Origin: Spirochaetia bacterium
Lineage (GTDB): Bacteria > Spirochaetota > Spirochaetia > SZUA-6 > Bin103
Direction: 5' to 3'
Assembly (NCBI GenBank): GCA_965203055.1
Contig: OZ241863.1
Coordinates: forward strand, 416,001 to 480,000
DNA: 64,000 nucleotides
Every line of letters begins with the position of its first letter. Position 1 is the stretch's first letter. The translations under genes and the position numbers were made by a program. Below, piece after piece: positions 51,432 to 64,000 of the stretch. The notes beneath the pieces were generated by a model. The model did no database searches and had not been told where the DNA came from. It worked only from the letters and a program-made list of their open reading frames with translations.

Positions 51432-51499
51432 CCGCTACAGGATAGCACGGCGGCGGCGGCTCGACGAAGTGGCCGCCCGGCCCTATGCTGGCAGCGGTG

Positions 51500-53257
51500 A
51501 TGAGTAACGCTCCTCCGCAGATACCCTACGGCTGGGCCGACTTCCGGATGATACGCCGCGAGCGCGCCCTGTACGTCGACAAGACCCGGTTTCTGCATGA
51601 CCTGGAGCAGGAGCGGTACGCCTTTCTGATCCGCCCGCGGCGCTTCGGCAAGTCGTGCTGGGTGTCGCTGCTGGCGTACTACTACGACCGCGCGCGCGCC
51701 GACCGCTTCGCCACCCTGTTCGCCGGCACCGACGTCGGGCGCCGGCCGACGCCCAACCGCCACCGGTACGTGATCCTGCACTTCGACTTCTCCGCCTTCG
51801 ACGACACCCTGGAGACGCTGCGCGAACGGTTCGAGATCTACTGCTTCATCAAGCTGCGCGCGGCGCTGGAACGGAATCGGGATCTGTTTCCACAACCGGT
51901 AATCGATCGCATCCTGGCGCACCCGGCCATCGACGGTCGCCTGAACGAGCTGTTCTCCTACGCCGGCGAGCAGGGCATCCCGCTGTACGTGCTGATCGAC
52001 GAGTACGACAACTTCGCCAACACCGTGCTGGCCTGGCATGGCGCCGAGGCGTACCATTCCTTCACCCACGGCGGCGGCTTCTACCGCAACTTCTTCGCCA
52101 CCCTCAAGGCCGGCGCCGGCTACGGCGGCGGCATCGAACGCCTGTTCGTCACGGGCGTCTCTCCCATCACCATGGACGACGTGACCAGCGGCTTCAACAT
52201 CGGCGCCAACATCAGCCTGCGCCAGAGGTTCAACGAGCTGCTCGGCTTCACCGGGGCGGAGGTACGCGGCCTCCTGGAGAGCTATCGGGACCACGGCGTA
52301 TTCGATCAGGACGTCGACGAGGCGATGGCCGTGATGGGCGAGTGGTACAATGGCTACCGGTTCGCCGAGGACGCCGCGAACGATATCTACAACACCGACA
52401 TGGTGCTCTACTACCTTAAGGCATCGATCCCGAACGATCGTCCTCCGCGCGAACTGATCGACACCAACGTGCGGATCGACTACGGCAAGCTGCGTCACCT
52501 GCTGACGGTCAACCGGCAGCTCAACGGCAACTTCGACCTGCTGCGCCACGTCATCGGCGAAGGCTGGGCGGACAGCGAAATCACGAGCGGCTTCCCGCTG
52601 GAGCGGCTGCAGGAGCGGGAGAACTTTCTGTCGCTGCTGCACTTCTTCGGGCTGCTCAGCATCCGCGAGGCGCGCGCCGGCATGCCCCGGCTGGGAATAC
52701 CGAATCAGACCGTCAAGCGGCTGATGTACGGCTACCTGCGCGACGGCTACCGCGACGTCGGCGTGTTCTCGGTGGACCTGTACGCCTTTGCCAACCTGGT
52801 GCACGAGATGGCGCACCGCGGCGCCTGGCGGCCGGTGCTGGAGTTCCTGGCGGGCGCGATCTCCCGGCAGAGCAGCATCCGCGACTACATCGACGGCGAG
52901 AAGGTGATTCAGGGGTTCCTGGCCGCATACCTGAGCTGCACCGATCACTTCGTGTTCCACTCCGAGCGGGAGCTGGGCGGCGGCTACGCCGACATCTGCC
53001 TGGAACCTCACCTGCAGCGCTACGCCGGCATGCGCCACGGGTACGTGATCGAACTGAAGTATCTGACGCGGCGGGAAGGAGCGAACGCGGCGCAGGTCGC
53101 GCAGGCGGCGCGGCAAGCCGCCGCGCAGGTAGGGCGCTACCTGGCCGATGAACGCCTGGCGCGCCAGTATCCGGCGGTGGGCTTCACCGGACTGGCCGTC
53201 GTGTTCCACGGCTGGGAGCTGGCGCACTGCGCCGCCGTATCCGCCGCGCGCGGCTAA
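51500..53257 (+). CDS. AAA-ATPase-like domain plus C-terminal PD-(D/E)XK nuclease protein
   Basis: YVDKT, RPRRFGKS, LIDEYD, WYNGY; C-terminal E...GYADI...IELKY. Confidence 0.9.
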   Translation: MSNAPPQIPYGWADFRMIRRERALYVDKTRFLHDLEQERYAFLIRPRRFGKSCWVSLLAYYYDRARADRFATLFAGTDVGRRPTPNRHRYVILHFDFSAFDDTLETLRERFEIYCFIKLRAALERNRDLFPQPVIDRILAHPAIDGRLNELFSYAGEQGIPLYVLIDEYDNFANTVLAWHGAEAYHSFTHGGGFYRNFFATLKAGAGYGGGIERLFVTGVSPITMDDVTSGFNIGANISLRQRFNELLGFTGAEVRGLLESYRDHGVFDQDVDEAMAVMGEWYNGYRFAEDAANDIYNTDMVLYYLKASIPNDRPPRELIDTNVRIDYGKLRHLLTVNRQLNGNFDLLRHVIGEGWADSEITSGFPLERLQERENFLSLLHFFGLLSIREARAGMPRLGIPNQTVKRLMYGYLRDGYRDVGVFSVDLYAFANLVHEMAHRGAWRPVLEFLAGAISRQSSIRDYIDGEKVIQGFLAAYLSCTDHFVFHSERELGGGYADICLEPHLQRYAGMRHGYVIELKYLTRREGANAAQVAQAARQAAAQVGRYLADERLARQYPAVGFTGLAVVFHGWELAHCAAVSAARG

Positions 53258-55168: not shown

Positions 55169-56176
55169 ATGAGTGCATTCTGGGAGCAGGTGGGCGGCAG
55201 TCTCGAACGGGGTGAGCGGGTGTTCGTGGCCTGCGTAGCCGAGCATACCCGCGGTTCGCCCGGCACCGCGGGGGCGAAGCTGATGGTGGCCGAGGGCGGG
55301 GACCGGTGCGGCACCATCGGCGGCGGCATGATGGAGCACCGGCTGGTCGAGCAGGCGCGGGCGGCGCTGCGCGGCGGCGCGGCGGCGCCGGAGAAGCGCA
55401 CCCTGGTGCATAGCGACACCGGCGACGGCGCGGCGGGCGAGCGGTCCGGCCTGGTGTGCGAGGGCCGCCAGACCAACGTCTTCTGCGTGCTGGCCGGGGA
55501 TCGTGATCGGGCGACCGTACGCGCGGTTGCCGCGGCGCTGCGCGAGGACCGGCCGGCGTGGATGGTGATCGATGCGGCCGGCCTGCGCCTCACGCGGCGG
55601 GAGCCGGACTTCTCCCGGCCGCCGTTCGTTCTGAGCGAGGAGGAAGGCGGAGGCTGGCGCTACGAGGAGGACCTGCTCAACCGGCGCCGGCTGGCGGTCA
55701 TCGGCGGCGGCCACTGCGCGGCAGCGTTGGCCGAGGTGACGGCGCGGCTCGGCTACCGGGTGCGGCTGTTCGACACCCGCGCCGAGGTGGTCGCCCACGA
55801 CCGGGCGGCGGCGTTCGGCGCCGTGTCCCACGTGGCCGATTACGCGGCGGCGGGACCGCGCATCGCCTACCCGGAGTTGACCGCGGTGGTGGTGATGACC
55901 GCCGACTACCGCACCGACGCGCGCGCGTTGCTCGGCGTCCTGAGCCTGCCCGTTCCCTTCGTCGGGCTGATGGGCGGCAGAAAGAAGATCGACCGGATAT
56001 TCTCCCTGCTGCAGGAGGAAGGCATCGCACGCCAGGCGCTCGACCGGGTTCGCGCACCGGTGGGGCTCGACATCGGCAGCGAGACGCCGGAGGAGATCGC
56101 CGTCAGCGTCGCCGCGCAGCTCCTGCGCGAACGGCACCGAGCACCCGCTCCGTCCCCTCCGCGACCGCGGCCGTGA
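55169..56176 (+). CDS. xdhC: XdhC/CoxI family xanthine dehydrogenase accessory protein
   Basis: GSxPG..GAKL, GTIGGG, GLVCEG, GGGH, VGLDIGSETPEEIAVS. Confidence 0.9.
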   Translation: MSAFWEQVGGSLERGERVFVACVAEHTRGSPGTAGAKLMVAEGGDRCGTIGGGMMEHRLVEQARAALRGGAAAPEKRTLVHSDTGDGAAGERSGLVCEGRQTNVFCVLAGDRDRATVRAVAAALREDRPAWMVIDAAGLRLTRREPDFSRPPFVLSEEEGGGWRYEEDLLNRRRLAVIGGGHCAAALAEVTARLGYRVRLFDTRAEVVAHDRAAAFGAVSHVADYAAAGPRIAYPELTAVVVMTADYRTDARALLGVLSLPVPFVGLMGGRKKIDRIFSLLQEEGIARQALDRVRAPVGLDIGSETPEEIAVSVAAQLLRERHRAPAPSPPRPRP

Positions 56177-56196: not shown

Positions 56197-57012
56197 TTAT
56201 TCGACTTCCATGATCTCGGGATCGAGCTGATACCAGAACACGGCTCCGGCATCGATGCTGTCGCCGATGCGGTCATCTCGCCGCATGCCTGACACCACGG
56301 CGTAGGCGTTCCGGCCCGTGAATCGGGTAAGGAAATCCGCGTTGCGGAGCGCCCGGGTCGTATCCCTTCCGTTGGCGGTGTAGGAGATCTCCACGGCGAC
56401 GTAGCAGGATTCGCCTGCCTCATCGGTCGCCTCCATGATCAGGTCGGCTCTTCGGAAGCTGCGCAGGTCGGCGCGGTCGATCGCGGTCGTGTCGGCGCGG
56501 TCGGTCAGCTCCCATAGATCATCGTGCGTCAGCGTCTTCGTGCGCCGCAAACCCAGGTCCCGAGCGATGGTGGAAGCCTCCGCGACCGCCGCATTTCTGG
56601 CATGGGCGCCTTTGAGGACGCCCAGGTCGTCCATCATCCTGTCGGTCTTGGTCTCCAGACGATCGAAGCGACGATCGGTAGCGGCGATGAAGCTATGCAC
56701 TTCCTCGCGGAGTGCAACCTGTTGTTCGGCCAACTCGGAGAGCCGCTCGCCCAACGCCGAGAGCCGTTCGGTCAACGCCGAGACCTGTTCGGCCAACGCC
56801 GAGACCCGCTCGGTCAACGCCGAGACCCGTTCGGCCAACTCCGAGACCCGCGCCGGCAGCTCGAGCAGTTCACGCGTGAGTATCCGGGATCGGAGGGCTT
56901 CCAGCCACTGCGGATGCCGGTCCAGCAGTGCGATCAGGTCTTCTATCGTATCGACGGCGTTCGTCGCGGGCATCTTGGCAAACAACTCCGGGGCGGTCGT
57001 CACGACCACCAT
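56197..57012 (-). CDS. Coiled-coil repeat protein with probable PD-(D/E)XK-like C-terminus
   Basis: Heptad repeats (ERVSAL), then ADLI...VAVEIS...RA. Start uncertain. Confidence 0.7.
   Translation of the reverse strand: MVVVTTAPELFAKMPATNAVDTIEDLIALLDRHPQWLEALRSRILTRELLELPARVSELAERVSALTERVSALAEQVSALTERLSALGERLSELAEQQVALREEVHSFIAATDRRFDRLETKTDRMMDDLGVLKGAHARNAAVAEASTIARDLGLRRTKTLTHDDLWELTDRADTTAIDRADLRSFRRADLIMEATDEAGESCYVAVEISYTANGRDTTRALRNADFLTRFTGRNAYAVVSGMRRDDRIGDSIDAGAVFWYQLDPEIMEVE
56720..56850 (-). repeat. About six 21-bp tandem repeats encoding coiled-coil heptads
   Basis: Recurrent cggtcaacgccgagacc / cggccaacgccgagacc units at 21-nt period. Confidence 0.8.
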
Positions 57013-57035
57013 AGCAGGTTCCGACCGTAAGCGCC

Positions 57036-57760
57036 AATCTGCAGCAGGTGTTGGGGAGCCGTAGCGGCGCCCGCTGGTGCGGTCCACGTAGCGGCCGCGG
57101 TCGCGCCGCCGCACCTCGCGCTTGACCGCCGCCGGGATAGCGCGGCCGGTCACGCCTGTCTTCGGCGCCGAAGTGGCGTCGGTCGCCGGCTTCGCTGCCG
57201 AAGTGACCGGGCGGTCAGCGGCTTCGTCTCCCGGCTGCGCCGGCGCCTGAGCCGATACCTTCGCCGCCGAAGGAGCGGCGCTGTCCGCGCCGGCCTCCTG
57301 CTTCGCTGCCGAGGCAGCGCCGCGAGCCGAGGCTGCCTGCGTCTTCGCCGCCGAAGTTTGCTCGGCGCCTTTGGCCGGCGCGGCGCGCCGCCCGGGCCGG
57401 ATCGTGGCGGTCGAGCCCTTCCCGCACCAGCCGCCCCATGAACTGCCCCAACGTCAGGTGCGGGTCAACGTGGGACAGGAGGCCCTTGAGCCGCTCCAAG
57501 CCCCGCCGGTACTCATCGTCGATCACCGCCTTGAGTTCCCAGCGCCCGCCGCCCAGCGGCCGCACCCGATCCGCCGGCGCCGCCAGCTCCGGGTCCACCT
57601 CGGCCAGCACTGCATCACCTGCCGGCTGCTCTTGCCGGACGCCTGCTCCACCAAGTCCCGCCGCGCCTCCGAGTTCAGCACCGGCGCCGGCACCGGCTTC
57701 CGCTCCGCCGGCTTCCGCTCTGCCGAACGCGGCGGCGCCGAGCCCTCCTGCGACTGAGCG
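57036..57760 (-). pseudogene. Fragmented HNH-endonuclease-type gene
   Basis: RAIPAAVKREVxRRD.GR, then a frameshifted QHLLQI that breaks off before the HNH Asp-His. Upstream pieces (ELKAVID..GLERLKGLLSH) lie in other frames. Confidence 0.7.
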
Positions 57761-57988: not shown

Positions 57989-58155
57989 AGGTGGTCCCGG
58001 TTGGTTAGACAGTCCGAGGGGTAGGTTAAGGTGTATCCGTCCTCAAGTTGAGGCGTTACCTGCTGAACCGCTCGGTAGACGCCGCTTCTCAGGGGTAGTA
58101 TGCTCGGTCTGCGGGTCCGTTGGGTCCTAACTCTTGTTCGGGAGGAATGAGTCGT

Positions 58156-58371
58156 ATGTCACAACACGTCGTTTCACGAGATGGCAAGTGGGCGGTGCGC
58201 AGGGGCGGTGCCGATCGCGTTACGCGACGTTTCGACACGCAACGTGAAGCCATCGACGCTGCACGTGAGCTTGCCCGTAAGCAGAAAACCATATTGTACA
58301 TCCATGGAGAGGATGGCAGAATTATAAAGCGAGACTCTTATGGGGAGGACCCATTTCCACCGAAAGGGTAA
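58156..58371 (+). CDS. DUF2188 family protein
   Basis: HVV..DGKWAV...FDTQREAI..AR...IHGEDGRI..RDSYG.DP.PPKG; GGAGG upstream. Confidence 0.88.
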   Translation: MSQHVVSRDGKWAVRRGGADRVTRRFDTQREAIDAARELARKQKTILYIHGEDGRIIKRDSYGEDPFPPKG

Positions 58372-58383
58372 TCACAGCGCCGG

Positions 58384-58918
58384 TTGACCCCAACTTTGAT
58401 CGAAACGTATTCCTGAACGAAGTGATGCTGGCGAATCACGGGTGGAGAAGATCATTCAACTTATTGAGTCATCCCGTTACTCGATTCACGACCTGAGCAG
58501 ATGCCAAGCCCGCGCGGCGCGGGAACACTACCGGCTCAACATGCCCTTTGAGCTTGGATTGGACTTCGGATGCCGACGTTATGGGGGCGAACCTCTTTCG
58601 GGGAAGGTCATTCTGATACTCGAGGAAAAGCCCTATCGCTATCAGGCGGCAATTTCCGACTTGGCAGGAAATGATATTGAAGCGCATGGCGGCGATCCGG
58701 AAACTGCCGTAAGGAAGGTCAGAAACTGGATTGACGGGCTCGGTGACTTCGAACTTATCGGACCTCATCGCATATTTTCAGAATATGAGGACTTCTATGA
58801 GTGGTACTACGAACGCCAACTGGAGGCCGGCTTTTCCGAACGTGACATCCAAGACTATTCCACCCCGAAACTCTTGAAGGAAATGCGCCATTGGACCGAA
58901 AAAGATAGGCCGCGATAA
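58384..58918 (+). pseudogene. Disrupted TIR/nucleoside-deoxyribosyltransferase-like protein
   Basis: The N-terminal PNFDRNVFLN is out of frame with ERSDAGESRVEKI...SIHDLSR...NMPFELG. Low GC. Confidence 0.6.
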
Positions 58919-58990
58919 GCATTCAGCGCCGCCGGAAGGAGTTCCCCGCTACCCAGGCTGGACGAAAGCTCCCGGTAAGCATCCGGCGGC

Positions 58991-60954
58991 CTAATCGGCC
59001 AGCTCCACCAGAAGCTGTTTGCCGGCCAGCGTCTGGCGCGCCCAATAGAGGTTCTGGTACTGATCGTAGCCGCCCTCTGCCAGCTTGGCCGTGCCGGTCG
59101 CGGTGGTGCCGCTGGCCGGCGCCGAAAAGGTCACGGTTGGGGCAGATTGGTAGCCGCTTCCCCCGTTCGTGACCGTCACCGACGCTACGCGCAGGGCCGC
59201 GGTGCCGGCGGCCGTGGTGCCGCCGCCCGGCGCCGCGCCGAAGGTCACGGTCGGGGCGGAGGTGTAGCCGCTCCCCCGGTTCGTGATCGTCACCGACGCT
59301 ATGCCGTAGCGCAGCACCGCGGTGCCGGCGGCGGTGGTGCCGCCGCTCGGCGCTGCGCCGAAGGTCACGGTGGGGGCGGAGGTGTAGCCGCTCCCCCCGT
59401 TCGTGATCGTCACCGACGCTACGCCGTAGCGCAGCACCGCGGTGCCGGCGGCGGTGGTGCCGGCGCCCGGCGCTGCGCCGAAGGTCACGGTCGGGACAGA
59501 GGTGTAGCCGCTTCCGGGGTTCGTGATCGTTACCTCCGCTACGCCGCTTTGCAGCACCGCGGTGCCGGTTGCCGTGTACGCGCTGCCCGTCGGCGAGGCC
59601 GAAAACGTCACGGAAGGGGCAGCCGTGTAGCCGCTCCCCGGGTTCGTGATCGTCACTGCCTCTATTCTGCTGGTTCTCAGCGTCGCGGTGCCGGCCGCAC
59701 CGCTGCCCCCTCCGCCCGAAAACGTCACGGATGGGGCGGTAGTGTAGCCGCTCCCCCGGTTCGTGATGCTTATGGTTAGCACTTGACCGCCGTGTATCGT
59801 CGCTGTTCCCGTTGCCCGGGTGCCACCGGACGGCGGAGCGCCAAACGTCACGGTTGGGGCCGACGTGTAACCGGTCCCAAAATTCGTCATCGTCACGCCG
59901 TCTAATTCGGTTCGCCGCGTTGCGGCGCCGGTCGCCGTGGTGCCGCCGGGCGGCGGCGCGCTGAACGTCACGGTCGGGTCAGAGGTATAGAATAGCCCCC
60001 GGAACGTGAGAGTCACTGCCGCTACGCCGCTTTGCCGCACCGCGGTGCCGGTGGCCGTGGTGCCGCCGGCCGGCGCCGCTCCGAACGTGACGCTGGGAAC
60101 CGACGTGTAGCCGCTCCCGGCGGTCCCGACCGTCACCGAATCGACGTACCTGGACCCAACGACGGTGCCGGTTGCCGTGGCGCCGCCGGCCGTCGGCGCT
60201 CCGAACGTGACGCTGGGAACCGACGTGTAGCCGCTTCCTGCAGTTCCCACCGTCACCGAATCGACGGTACCGGAGCCCACCACCGCGGCGCCGGTTGCCG
60301 TGGCGCCGCCGGCCGGCGGCGCCCCGAACGTCACGCTGGGAACCGTCGCGTAGCCGCTCCCTGCGGTCCCGACCGTCACGGAATCGACGGAGCCGACTGC
60401 GGCGCCGGTTGCCGTAGTGCCGCCGGCCGGCGGCGCCTCGAACGTGACGCTGGGAACCGACGCATAGCCGCTCCCCGGGTTCGCTATCGTGACCGATTCA
60501 ACCGTGTCGGAGGCGCCCGACTGATCCGGGGCGGTGAGCACCAGCGCCACCGCGCCCGCCCGGACGTCCGCGGTAACCGTCCACTCCGCGCCGGAGATGT
60601 CGGACGCGAAGACCGGCTTGGCGCTCGTGCTGGTGAACGGCAGCTCGTGCCCGCCAATCGAAACGCGCGCGCTGCCGCCGGTGAGCCGCTCCCAGGCATA
60701 CGGCGCGGAACGGCTGGACACGGCGCCCGTCAGGTTCGGTTCATCATCGCCAAAGTCAGCCGCGTTGATCGTCCAGCGCTTCTCCGCCGGCGCTGCCGGC
60801 TGCGGGGTTGGCGCGGGCTCGGTCGGCGGTTTACCCCCCCCCCTGAAGCCGGGTCGGCGGGCGCGGCGGCCGGGCGCGCCGCCTGGGAACAGGCCATCAG
60901 CGCGGCGATGCCGGCGGCCAGCAACAGCAATAACGGCGGCGATACCTTACTCAC
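58991..60954 (-). CDS. Repeat-rich surface lipoprotein copy 1, split by a frameshift at a G10 tract
   Basis: GGAGG plus GTG 60954, signal peptide LLLLLAAGIAALMAC, G10 at 60834-60843, then the -1 frame is open to the stop at 58991. Twelve GSGY..P.VTF repeats. Confidence 0.85.
60834..60843 (-). repeat. G10 homopolymer (slippage site), copy 1
   Basis: C10 on the + strand. G11 or G8 would fuse the two ORFs. Confidence 0.9.
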
Positions 60955-60992
60955 GATTCCTCCGGTGGCGTGTCCGCCCGTCGATCCGTCGA

Positions 60993-61325
60993 TCATGGTA
61001 GCACGGCTACGCTATGGGCGGTTTCGTGCGAATCTGCGGACGATTGAGACTCGGATGCGGGCATCCCCAACTCGTTCTCGATGCGCGCCAGGCGATCAGC
61101 CACGGCAACACGTAGATCGTCTACCTTCTCATCAAGCGCGTCGATACTACCCTCAATCTTGGCTATGTCGGCGCGGGCCTCGGCGATGGTCACGCTGGTT
61201 GCCTTCACGTCGCCGGATAGGTCGCCGATCTTACCGCTCAATACCCAGGCGGCACCGACGATAGCGATAACGACGGTCACCACCACACCGACGGCGGTAA
61301 CTATCAGGGTCTTGTTCTCACTCAC
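60993..61325 (-). CDS. Small TM plus coiled-coil hypothetical protein
   Basis: AGGAGG upstream of GTG; hydrophobic N-terminal helix followed by heptads. Confidence 0.7.
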   Translation of the reverse strand: MSENKTLIVTAVGVVVTVVIAIVGAAWVLSGKIGDLSGDVKATSVTIAEARADIAKIEGSIDALDEKVDDLRVAVADRLARIENELGMPASESQSSADSHETAHSVAVLP

Positions 61326-61401
61326 GGTCCACCTCCTGCCAGAACGGCAACAGGCAAGGCGGCCAACCTGCGGCCGCGTGATTCATGGCGCCAGCATACC
61401 A

Positions 61402-61476
61402 CGGCGCCAGATCCGCGGCAAGAAGATCGATATCAACGACAGCCTGTGGCTGGCTCGCATCTGCCAATTTGGTCTT
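61402..61476 (+). mobile_element. IS110-family transposase fragment
   Basis: Reads RRQIRGKKIDINDSLWLARICQFGL, resembling the IS110 GRKTDxxDAxWLA motif. Confidence 0.6.
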
Positions 61477-61509
61477 TCACAGCAAAGCTCCGGGTCGCTA
61501 GCCGGCGGC

Positions 61510-63470
61510 CTAATCGGTTAGCTCCACCAGAAGCTGCTTGCCGGCCAGCGTCTGGCGCGCCCAATAGAGGTTCTGGTATTGATCGTAGCCGCCCGAGGCC
61601 AAGTTCGCCGTGCCGGTCGCGGTGGTGCCGCTGGCCGGCGCCGAAAAGGTCACGGTCGGGGCAGATTGGTAGCCGCTTCCCCCGTTCGTGACCGTCACCG
61701 ACGCTACGCGCAGGGCCGCGGTGCCGGCGGCCGTGGTGCCGGCGCCCGGCGCCGCTCCGAAGGTCACGGTGGGGGCGGAGGTGTAGCCGCTCCCCCCGTT
61801 CGTGATCGTCACCGACGCTACGCCGTAGCGCAGCACCGCAGTGCCGGCGGCGGTGGTGCCGCCGCTCGGCGCTGCGCCGAAGGTCACGGTTGGGACAGAG
61901 GTGTAGCCGCTCCCCCCGTTCGTGATCGTCACCGACGCTACGCCGTAGCGCAGCACCGCGGTGCCGGCGGCGGTGGTGCCGGCGCCCGGCGCTGCGCCGA
62001 AGGTCACGGTTGGGACAGAGGTGTAGCCGCTCCCAGGGTTCGTGATCGTTACCTCCGCTACGCCGCTTTGCAGCACCGCGGTGCCGGTTGCCGTCTGGGA
62101 GTTGAGGCCCGATGCTGCGCCGAAGGTCACGGTCGGGGCAGAGGTGTAGCCGCTTCCGGGGTTCGTGATCGTCACTTCCAGTATTCTTCTGGCCCATACA
62201 TACGCGGTGGCGACGGCGCCGCTGCCCCCTCCTCCCGAAAACGTAACGGTCGGGCGGGAGGTGTAGCCGCTCCCCCGGTTCGTTATGGTTACGCTGAGCA
62301 CACCACCGCCCTGTATCGTCGCGGTTCCGGTTGCCTGCGTGCCACCGGCCTGCTGCGGAGCGCCAAAGGTCACGGTTGGGGCGGACGTGTAACCGCTCCC
62401 CGCGTTCGTAACGAGCACGGTAAATAGTTCGGGCCGGCGCGTTGCGGTGCCGGTCGCGGTGGTGCCGCCGGACGGCGGAGCGCTGAACGTCACGGTCGGG
62501 TCACCATTTGGATAGTTCCCGTTGATCACCATCGTCACTGACGTTACGCCGCTTTGCAGCACCGCGGTGCCGGTTGCCGTGGTGCCGCCGGACGGCGGCG
62601 CTCCAAACGTGACGCTGGGAACCGACGTGTAGCCGCTCCCGGCGGTCCCGACCGTCACCGAATCGACGTACCTGGGCCCAACGACGGTGCCGGTTGCCGT
62701 GGCGCCGCCGGCCGGCGCCGCTCCGAACGTCACGGTGGGAACCGACGCATAGCCGCTTCCTGCAGTTCCCACCGTCACCGAATCGACGGTACCGGAGCCC
62801 ACCGCGGCGCCGGTTGCCGTAGTGCCGCCGGCCGTCGGCGTCCCGAACGTCACGGTGGGAACCGACGCGTAGCCGTTCCCGGCGGTCCCGACCGTCACGG
62901 AATCGACGGAGCCCGCCGCGGCGCCGGTTGCCGTGGTGCCGCCGGCCGTCGGCGCCCCGAACGTGACGCTGGGAACCGACGCATAGCCGCTTCCCGGGTT
63001 CGCTATCGTGACCGACTCGACCGTGTCGGAGGCGCCCGACTGATCCGGGGCGGTGAGCACCAGCGCCACCGCGCCCGCCCGCACCTCGGCGGCAACCGTC
63101 CACTCCGCGCCGGAGAGATCGGACGCGAAGACCGGCTTGGCGCTCGTGCTGGTGAACGGCAGCTCGTGCCCGCCAATCGAAACGCGCACGGCGCCGCCGG
63201 TGAGCCGCTCCCACGCATACGGCGCGGAACGGCTGGACACGGCGCCCGTCAGGTTCGGTTCATCATCGCCAAAGTCAGCCGCGTTGATCGTCCAGCGCTT
63301 CTCCGCCGGCGCTGCCGGCTGCGGAGTTGGCGCGGGCTCGGTCGGCGGTTTACCCCCCCCCCTTGGGCCGGGTCGGCGGGCGCAACGGCCGGGCGCGCCG
63401 CCTGGGAACAGGCCATCAGCGCGGCGATGCCGGCGGCCAGCAACAGCAATAACGGCGATACCTTACTCAC
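61510..63470 (-). CDS. Repeat-rich surface lipoprotein copy 2, split by a frameshift at a G10 tract
   Basis: GGAGG plus GTG 63470, same lipobox, G10 at 63353-63362, -1 frame open to the stop at 61510. Twelve repeats. Confidence 0.85.
63353..63362 (-). repeat. G10 homopolymer (slippage site), copy 2
   Basis: C10 on the + strand with the same frame offset as copy 1. Confidence 0.9.
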
Positions 63471-63699
63471 GTTCCCTCCGGTGGCGTGTCCGCCCGTCGG
63501 TCATGGTAGCACGCGCCCCCCAAGCTGACCACCCGTCCCCGCGCGGGCGTGGGCGGGCGCGCCGCTCCGGTGGTCGCCTGCGGGTCGATCGGCTATCATG
63601 CGAGGCGAGATGAGCGAGTTCCCGGAGCGGATGGCCGGTCAGCGCGATCCCGGCGTCCCTGCGCAGACCCCGCGCGAGCGCTGCCGGCCCTGACCGGCC

Positions 63700-64000
63700 A
63701 TGCAGCCGCGCACGCGCTTCATCCTCAACGACCGCGAGGTTGAGACCGCGGCCCCGGCCGGGCTGCTGCTGCTCGACTACCTGCGCGCCGGCGCGCGCCT
63801 GACCGGCACCAAGGAGGGCTGCAAGGAGGGCGACTGCGGCGCCTGCGCGGTCCTGATCGGGGAGCTTCAGGGCGGCGCCGTCCGCTACCAGCCGGTCACC
63901 TCCTGTCTGGTGCCGCTGGCCGAGGCGCACGGCGCGCACGTGGTGACCATCGAAGGGTGCAATCCGGCGGTCGGGCTCGACCCCGTGCAGCGCGCGGTGG
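63700..64000 (+). CDS. xdhA: Xanthine dehydrogenase small subunit (2Fe-2S), runs off the window
   Basis: LLDYLR...LTGTKEGCKEGDCGACAV...SCL...VVTIEG. Confidence 0.88.
   Translation, partial: MQPRTRFILNDREVETAAPAGLLLLDYLRAGARLTGTKEGCKEGDCGACAVLIGELQGGAVRYQPVTSCLVPLAEAHGAHVVTIEGCNPAVGLDPVQRAV

Follow-up and report, generated by a model that had tools for sequence, protein, structure and literature searches.

Within a 64,000-nucleotide stretch of contig OZ241863.1 of a Spirochaetia bacterium (assembly GCA_965203055.1, positions 416,001 to 480,000 of the forward strand; hereafter the window, numbered from its first letter), two tandem genes on the minus strand, denoted copy A and copy B, encode putative lipoproteins that carry twelve units of about 40 residues with a Gly-Ser-Gly-Tyr (GSGY) motif. 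As far as full-text searches of the literature show, they belong to an undescribed multi-copy lipoprotein family of uncultured high-GC Spirochaetia, and from the position and the length differences of its homopolymer tracts we read this family as a contingency (phase-variable) one. The best single explanation of the repeat array, and one that we hold to be probable, is that it runs out from a base and back to it with a turn at its centre, as the unit numbers, the positions of cysteines and a break in a predicted structure suggest.

A and B are tandem paralogues. In the mechanism that we propose, they would be exported as surface or periplasm-facing lipoproteins, and their expression would be set by a hypermutable G tract just after the lipobox; the ten-base tract (G10) of both copies leaves the signal peptide out of frame, and expression would be turned on by slippage to G11 or G8. 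The family-specific N-terminal domain (N-domain) and the C-terminal helix and strand (C-tail) would fold together as a base, and the array, made of three-strand units of 40 residues, forms an insert between the two and would therefore have to go out and come back, which would also be the reason why the members carry 0, 2, 4 and so on up to 14 units. Its most likely form is a two-armed stalk with a U-turn at the central junction (6/7 in the window proteins), where the two arms would contact each other through the faces of their sheets and the Thr-rich faces would point outward. The central units would then be the most distant from the base, and their differences between A and B, the largest in the protein, would come from recombination. 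Such a protein would probably serve as a stalk on the cell surface that binds or shields, can be switched and can be adjusted in length.

The two gene copies and the family they define

Two open reading frames (ORFs) of 576 amino acids each, at 58991-60721 (copy A) and 61510-63240 (copy B), were the starting point; both begin at an internal GTG, and a Pro-rich linker together with a conserved AEKRW strand lies upstream of this GTG in the same frame as the 576-residue ORF. The copies are part of a tandem duplication, 58965-60986 versus 61484-63502, with 2035 aligned bases at 90.9% identity. A promoter and terminator scan of 58800-63800 gave nothing above shuffles. The features of the two genes are as follows.

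58991..60954, minus strand: gene copy A, full length; start GTG at 60954, stop codon at 58991-58993, frame broken at G10
60889..60954, minus strand: copy A signal peptide with lipobox (VSKVSPPLLLLLAAGIAALMAC), by sequence pattern, with a GGAGG ribosome-binding site just upstream
60834..60843, minus strand (C10 on the plus strand): copy A G10 homopolymer, candidate slipped-strand switch
60788..60835, minus strand: copy A Pro-rich linker (GKPPTEPAPTPQPAAP)
60509..60787, minus strand: copy A N-domain, 93 amino acids, from AEKRW to SGAS, family-specific
60032..60508, minus strand: copy A units 1-4, of which units 2-4 are of the VDSVTVGTAGSGY subtype
59549..60031, minus strand: copy A units 5-8, divergent central cassette, with the 6/7 Gly-Gly junction near 59789
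59081..59548, minus strand: copy A units 9-12, of which units 9-11 are of the GVASVTITNGGSGY subtype
58994..59080, minus strand: copy A C-tail, predicted helix (YDQYQNLYWARQ) and final strand (QLLVEL), kept family-wide
61510..63470, minus strand: gene copy B, full length; start GTG at 63470, frame broken at G10
63353..63362, minus strand (C10 on the plus strand): copy B G10 homopolymer, with the position and frame state of that in copy A
62068..62553, minus strand: copy B units 5-8, divergent cassette

A first-pass annotation of this DNA had described 12 GSGY units of about 40 residues in each protein, and this is borne out by 12 G-x-G-Y-type anchors in each, 38-41 residues apart, and by a hidden Markov model (HMM) built from the units, which detects 12 units in both A and B; unit 5 is degenerate in both proteins, with GLFY in A and GNYP in B. 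The two subtypes that it had recognised, VDSVTVGTAGSGY in units 2-4 and G[VI]A.VTITN.GSGY in units 9-11, are both present, and so are all the strings that it had quoted (TATIHGGQV / TATIQGGGV, LTFRGLFYTSD / MVINGNYPNGD and TLRTSR / YVWARR).

What defines the family is the frame around the repeats, which consists of the lipobox, the Pro linker, the 93-residue N-domain and the C-tail (GxDQYQNLYWARQTLxGKxLLV). Among the 120 matches listed, 38 carry both the N-domain and the C-tail, 15 the N-domain only, 1 the C-tail only and 66 neither; the 15 N-domain-only matches look like fragments. The N-domain is rare: of 1.84 billion cluster representatives, its profile picks out 57, with E <= 1e-10 for 43, and more distant profile matches (P0145, P0157, P0160, P0161, P0163 and P0164) were discarded as spurious, being multi-stretch matches in fn3, PKD, WD40 or repetitive proteins. 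When two peptide patterns were run against contigs of one genome per species, 33 loci were obtained, all of them in four metagenome-assembled genomes (MAGs) named 'Spirochaetia bacterium', with 16 of the 33 in a single 4.1-Mb chromosome and several forming tandem arrays. Tandem family genes in the related genomes, comparable to the A-B pair, comprise three genes at locus L005 (3442-10521) and two each at L023, L026 and L029. At L007 (6034-6519), the N-domain, a single unit and the C-tail occur together with no signal peptide upstream, which is probably a deletion remnant; the database versions of this copy (P0121, P0122) are frameshifted fragments.

Searches of Pfam and NCBIfam gave no family for A or B, apart from one chance-level match in Pfam at E <= 1. 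For the N-domain, the best score in the ESM Atlas was 0.88, below the 0.9 threshold for more than a lead, and no description of a GSGY-repeat lipoprotein family was found in the full-text literature, as judged partly from listings.

The repeat itself occurs widely, in at least 5955 proteins of the databases (5955 of the best 8000 candidates at E <= 1e-3), and some of those matching are named merely 'beta strand repeat-containing protein'. In PHROGs, copy A gives matches with E of 1.5e-57, 2.4e-49 and 8.9e-47 (PHROG 460, 5342 and 701 among them), copy B gives similar ones, and all are confined to the repeats. BFVD contains 54 models matching at E <= 1e-3, mostly of cyanophage and uncultured Caudovirales proteins, and two-unit blocks align with these phage models over 79-82 columns at a root-mean-square deviation (rmsd) of 0.7-1.7 Å and 36-46% identity. 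The PDB searched by sequence and by a two-unit profile gave nothing below E 0.3, and Foldseek against the PDB with models of A and of a 6-unit homologue gave 0 matches at E <= 1e-3; for the phage repeat, likewise, no model was found in the Pfam search and no solved structure in the PDB search. Weak fold matches to the tail tip of Bxb1, Thermus RNA polymerase beta-prime and cyanobacterial Si3 were dropped, with template modelling (TM) scores of 0.1-0.17. Thus, the earlier claim of an undescribed family with phage-type GSGY repeats holds in these searches, with nothing in Pfam, NCBIfam and the PDB and with PHROGs matches down to E 1e-57.

The phage proteins with the same 40-residue unit are annotated in PHROGs as 'head closure Hc2' (460), 'tail fiber' (5342 and 17885), 'virion structural protein' (701) and 'baseplate wedge' (708). 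The window genes differ from them in lying in an ordinary chromosomal context with no phage genes nearby, and in adding a lipoprotein signal, the family-specific N-domain and C-tail, and the candidate homopolymer switch.

The course of the repeat array

The N-domain is present in 38 of the 39 matches that bear a C-tail, and in the zero-unit members L033 and P0155 it is joined directly to the C-tail, so the two may be regarded as one clasp module; in the two-unit member P0131, the clasp holds one unit of the unit-1 type and one of the unit-12 type. The unit count is even in 67 of 71 members (4, 6, 8, 10, 12 or 14) and in all 6 complete hold-out proteins, and with the zero- and two-unit members included, the natural series is 0, 2, 4 ... 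14. Clasp-less GSGY proteins are even in 35 cases and odd in 31 of the 66, where the unit calling is rough. A count of 9 for P0074 is a splitting artefact. The smaller members can be aligned within the larger ones: the core of the 6-unit proteins maps to window units 1, 5, 6, 7, 8 and 11 or 12 (12 being of the last-unit type by eye), the window proteins equal this core with three units added to each half, L004 has two added to each, and L008 has lost the central pair. As the sequences read, the gain of units at the DNA level is not in two-unit steps.

Cysteines occur in the repeats of 35 of the 71 members, and their number there is always 2 or 4. In 8-unit members, they occupy strand-b core positions of units 4 and 5, with two more in unit 6, and because P0059 retains the unit-6 (b6-c6) pair only, b4-b5 is taken as the other pair. 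In the 12-unit L032, one cysteine stands where strand c of unit 6 begins and the other in the loop after strand a of unit 7, and these two could touch only if the chain turns at 6/7. The 4-unit P0119 and P0124 have cysteines in units 2 and 3, and in two 6-unit subfamilies, two cysteines would stand at equal height on opposite arms; overall, the pairs appear to fit central or equal-height contacts in five subfamilies. Adjacent cysteines (SGCCPTVTF) in unit 2 of the 6-unit subfamily (for example, P0009 and L009) are kept in 14 sequences and may be a vicinal disulfide or a metal site, and a similar CC is found near the central junction of P0152.

In the AlphaFold2 (AF2) model of A, the strands are continuous across all junctions except 6/7, where there is a break at the Gly-Gly, and the C-tail helix and strand have a predicted local distance difference test (pLDDT) score of about 90, which is lower in the model of the 6-unit homologue. 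In the first-pass annotation, unit 1 was thought to pair with unit 12 and unit 6 with unit 7, and structure prediction was suggested as the check; the single break and the confident C-tail agree with this, but the predicted TM (pTM) scores were low, 0.39 for A and 0.54 for the 6-unit homologue although its alignment is clean. A complex prediction of copy A units 1-6 against units 7-12 scored 0.29 (mark 0.32) and was used neither way.

The claim that the chain goes out and comes back is therefore indirectly favoured by the even unit numbers, the central cysteines, the N-domain/C-tail module and the 6/7 break, and it has to be set against several observations besides the pTM values. Odd counts do exist (9 in L010, 11 in one L005 copy, 7 in P0008), and the parity counts ignore relatedness, so that binomial p-values overstate the case. 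We infer the disulfides from cysteine positions only. Units 4 and 12 are disordered in the model of A, and the 6-unit model breaks at 1/2, 3/4 and 5/6, a pattern that two-unit modules in a zig-zag would fit as well. In L001 (4/5 of 10), P0001 (3/4 of 8) and L010, the tip-like junction lies away from the centre.

Some of the same observations speak for a chain of two-unit modules, the main rival to the out-and-back array, in which the array, like those of phage proteins, would be a string of independent domains (1+2, 3+4 and so on) and the even numbers would reflect the two-unit fold, with no pairing of arms. Besides the breaks in the 6-unit model and the low pTM of the models, this rival can draw on the phage-model matches, which are tightest at two units (79-82 columns, 0.7-1.7 Å) and loosen to about 5 Å for four units and 11-14 Å for six, and on the best PHROG stretches, which are about 78 residues long. 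Nevertheless, we consider it unlikely, since the odd numbers in 31 of the 66 other GSGY proteins, as far as the rough unit calling goes, mean that the fold does not force even numbers, and since the cysteine pairs join units 2 and 3 of 4, 4 and 5 of 8, and 6 and 7 of 12, which in this phasing would belong to different domains. It would also require reshuffled partners to accommodate the mapping of the 6-unit core, and the model of A has its single break at 6/7. Alternating short and long b-c loops, tried as a marker of two-unit domains, showed no consistent pattern by eye. A straight homotrimeric fibre like those of phage tails, in which the C-tail would trimerise and the N-domain would sit at the far end by the lipid anchor, is in our view quite improbable, even though the repeat is common to tail-fibre, baseplate-wedge and virion proteins, the one hydrophobic face per three-strand unit (a reading of the sequence pattern) needs a partner, and most junctions in the model of A are continuous strands. 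Such a fibre leaves the even-number rule and the central cysteine pairs unexplained, it would place the two ends of the c6-to-unit-7-loop link about 60 Å apart on a straight strand, and it does not account for zero-unit members that join the N-domain directly to the C-tail.

Homopolymer tracts and the divergent middle

In both copies, the lipobox signal peptide (LLAAGIAALMAC; GTG 60954 in A, 63470 in B) is out of frame with the body of the protein, and the G10 run is where the two frames meet. The peptide VSKVSP(P)LLLLLAAGIAALMAC follows a GGAGG site in A and in B, as a pattern only. A tract of G11 or G8 joins the signal peptide to the body, while G9 runs into a TAA. The two G10 runs are the only homopolymers of at least 7 within the 64-kb window, and GGG encodes only 17 of the 96 glycines of A and 18 of the 98 of B. 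The lipid anchor postulated earlier thus has its lipobox signal peptide in both copies, although at G10 this peptide is not in frame with the rest; the poly-G switch had not been flagged in the first-pass annotation.

Related copies, of which 34 were examined (36 counting A and B), carry tracts of quite different lengths. Paralogues of the closest genome have G18, G18, G21, G22, G20, G20 and G12 at the same position, and the orthologue L002 has G18 where A and B have G10, with flanks 92-97% identical; from this identity, the organism of the window is probably related to the MAG that holds L002. Among database proteins of the same subfamilies, some have the signal peptide in frame through GGG or GGGG, and others are truncated or misframed at the tract. 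Fifteen further copies, mostly those without an internal tract, have a poly-C of C8-C31 upstream of the gene, in most cases abutting the GGAG ribosome site or following a -10-like TATTAT (for example, L005 3453-3467 and 8464-8494, L008 5707-5723, L021 5757-5773 and L025 5784-5800), and L008 has both kinds of tract. In total, a tract of at least 8 is present in 24 of the 36 gene copies, and a comparable lipobox in 30 of the 34 related ones, by pattern only and with the matches in L020 doubtful. Very long runs were also seen at sites not assigned to a family gene (G28 at L029 7099-7126, G24 at L031 4931-4954 and C16 at L028 10096-10111), and homopolymer tracts may be used widely in the related genomes.

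Long homopolymers are easily miscalled in assemblies, and calls of ON or OFF from tract length are unreliable for this reason. The tract lengths used here were taken from assemblies, and both window copies are off, which weighs against a working switch. In the contrary explanation, there is no switch, and the frame breaks are assembly errors in homopolymers or A and B are decaying pseudogenes. The identical G10 and frame state in A and B would agree with it, as would the finding that, of the eight copies scored for frame (six paralogues of the closest genome together with A and B), one, L008, is in frame, and the fact that the related assemblies are single-chromosome MAGs with tracts of 12-31 bases, presumably hard to call. 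We still think it improbable, because the tract stands at the same codon position in diverged paralogues and species, with lengths of 10-22 and flanks 90-95% identical, because a poly-C in the leader takes its place in other clades of the family, and because no other homopolymer of at least 7 is found in 64 kb. Furthermore, the 576 codons downstream of the tract are intact in both ORFs, the ratio of nonsynonymous to synonymous rates (omega) stays under 1 in most regions (units 2 and 3 have 1.1-1.35, A versus B), and a length error would not abolish the tract.

The second kind of variation in the family lies in the repeats. The near-identical flanks and divergent units 5-8 reported in the first-pass annotation are confirmed, with 92-98% DNA identity in the former against 76-79% in the latter. 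By region, the nucleotide identity of A and B is 0.95 in the N-domain, 0.92-0.96 in units 1-4, 0.76-0.79 in units 5-8, 0.96-0.98 in units 9-12 and 0.92 in the C-tail. Sliding-window identity and a comparison of nonsynonymous (dN) and synonymous (dS) divergence, both suggested with that annotation, delimit a sharp-edged block, about 60036 to 59576 in copy A, in which dS is raised along with dN; the block holds four hypervariable patches of 45-60 nucleotides with 49-64% identity (45-nucleotide windows). The dS is 0.33-0.44 in units 5-8, compared with 0.06-0.21 in the other repeat units and 0.22 in the C-tail, and omega in units 5-8 is 0.5-0.8. Positive selection was rejected as the cause of the variable block since dS rises together with dN, and for the same reason, the block has a different history and not a faster protein evolution.

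This pattern points to recombination, through homogenisation of the flanks or exchange of a cassette. The single orthologue L002 of a related genome has an A-like cassette (83-91% to A versus 70-78% to B) and flanks about equally close to A and B, and no match above 80% to units 5-8 of copy B was obtained among the related loci fetched; thus, either the flanks of the pair were homogenised, or copy B may have taken its cassette from an unseen paralogue. In the 6-unit subfamily, the centre is also the most variable part, the mean pairwise identities of units 1-6 being 0.67, 0.47, 0.49, 0.55, 0.61 and 0.64. Hence, the idea of a variable tip receives support from A versus B and from this subfamily, but A and the paralogue L005b are evenly diverged, with no central excess, and this counts against it. 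On these sequences, the variable tip is a tendency and not a rule.

Genomic neighbourhood, related systems and biological meaning

The neighbours of the two genes are those of an ordinary chromosome (XdhC, a Fer2 protein, an ABC permease, SMC and an FtsH-like protein), and family scans of the window found no capsid, terminase or tail genes beside A and B. The only phage families matched nearby are PHROG 3220 (function unknown), by a DUF2188 protein, and weakly PHROG 351 (sigma factor, E 9.5e-05), besides a weak spanin-like match of the ORF between the copies:

60993..61325, minus strand: ORF of 110 amino acids between copies A and B, outside the duplication, with one membrane helix and a coiled coil

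The matches of this ORF in PHROGs are to Rz-like spanins (E 3.7e-06), and tblastn gave no counterpart of it in the 33 related loci. Downstream of copy A, the GC content goes down to 0.62 (58001-60000). The DUF2188 protein is encoded by the ORF at 58120-58371 on the plus strand (E 6e-23, also PHROG 3220), and next to it, a plus-strand ORF at 58442-58918 encodes 158 residues with no family, a fragment of which recurs beside the orthologue L002. In a 318-residue protein on the minus strand (56197-57153), coiled-coil heptads follow one another almost unchanged (…LAERVSALTERVSALAEQVSALTERLSALGERLSELAEQ…). The C-terminal half of this protein matches the sequence right after L002 at 85% identity, and its first 33 residues recur beside L003, L010 and L011, so that it travels with the GSGY family. 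Further away, a gene at 51485-53254 on the plus strand, with a predicted AAA-ATPase domain (PF09820, E 1e-45) and a PD-(D/E)XK nuclease domain (PF08011), overlaps a longer opposite-strand ORF with no family. The XdhC-family gene (55169-56176, plus strand) and the 2Fe-2S (Fer2) gene (63700-63999, plus strand) are 7.5 kb apart, with the lipoprotein genes and small ORFs between them; they are likely parts of one dehydrogenase system, and the 7.5-kb stretch looks like an insertion.

Poly-G tracts are known as switches in other bacteria, and in Neisseria PilC, such a tract is located in the signal-peptide region. The parts of the reports consulted describe phase variation of Treponema pallidum tpr genes by a promoter poly-G (PMC7864442) and an intragenic G-tract switch in pilus genes of Bifidobacterium breve (PMC9187656). 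Common to these systems and the GSGY family is a run of G or C, within the ORF near the signal peptide or in the leader, with the expression of an exported protein depending on its length, which for the GSGY family is our reading. In contrast to the tpr, pilus and PilC systems, the protein family here is unrelated, its relatives have much longer tracts, reaching G22 and C31, the genes come from uncultured high-GC Spirochaetia that are not known pathogens, and switching is read from sequences.

Borrelia Vmp/VlsE and Mycoplasma Vlp/Vsa are recombining multigene families of surface lipoproteins. The GSGY family resembles them in its numerous paralogues within one genome, often in tandem, in lipoprotein export and in the mosaic identity between copies, but it has no sequence relation to them, no silent-cassette archive was seen in it, its variable part is a block of repeat units, and its repeat number changes in steps of two. 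In streptococcal antigen I/II, a sortase-anchored protein, an alpha helix and a polyproline helix wound around each other make up the stalk. The proposed array would share with it the course of the chain, which leads out and back so that a stalk presents a distal head, whereas here, both arms would be beta repeats of one kind and the lipid anchor would be N-terminal. No A-, V- or P-region domains of antigen I/II were found in the Pfam search of A and B. As a phase-variable multigene family of surface lipoproteins, the GSGY family would be of a kind already known, and the fold of its repeat is uncharacterised.

Lipoprotein export, a switch on most copies, paralogues, a mosaic centre, Thr-rich faces and a phage-type repeat all fit a putative surface or envelope protein under fluctuating selection, where the Thr-rich outer faces are our reading of the patterns VTITN, TVTF and TATGTA. 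Candidate roles include those of adhesin, shield, and phage-related decoy or receptor, and we would commit only to a 'switchable surface stalk'. As the repeat is shared with phage fibre and baseplate proteins, a glycan or a phage-related target is plausible, although this is a guess. A fuller scenario would be an as yet undescribed beta-repeat architecture, in which a small clasp domain is split by a fold-back insert of phage-fibre-type units, which grows and shrinks two units at a time (0 to 14) in a large contingency family of free-living high-GC spirochaetes, each copy with its own G/C tract, with the distal units recombining and the proteins possibly mimicking phage receptor-binding fibres or serving as decoys; taken as a whole, this scenario is tentative, and we would give it somewhat less than an even chance.

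Phase-variable, recombining families of surface lipoproteins are familiar from pathogenic spirochaetes and mycoplasmas. The homopolymer tracts on 24 of the 36 copies bring this pathogen-type logic to uncultured high-GC Spirochaetia, which suggests that the pressure behind such systems, perhaps from phages or grazers, is wider than immune evasion. For the common phage repeat, the even-number rule and the central cysteine pairs offer a concrete and testable prediction of how its units may pack.

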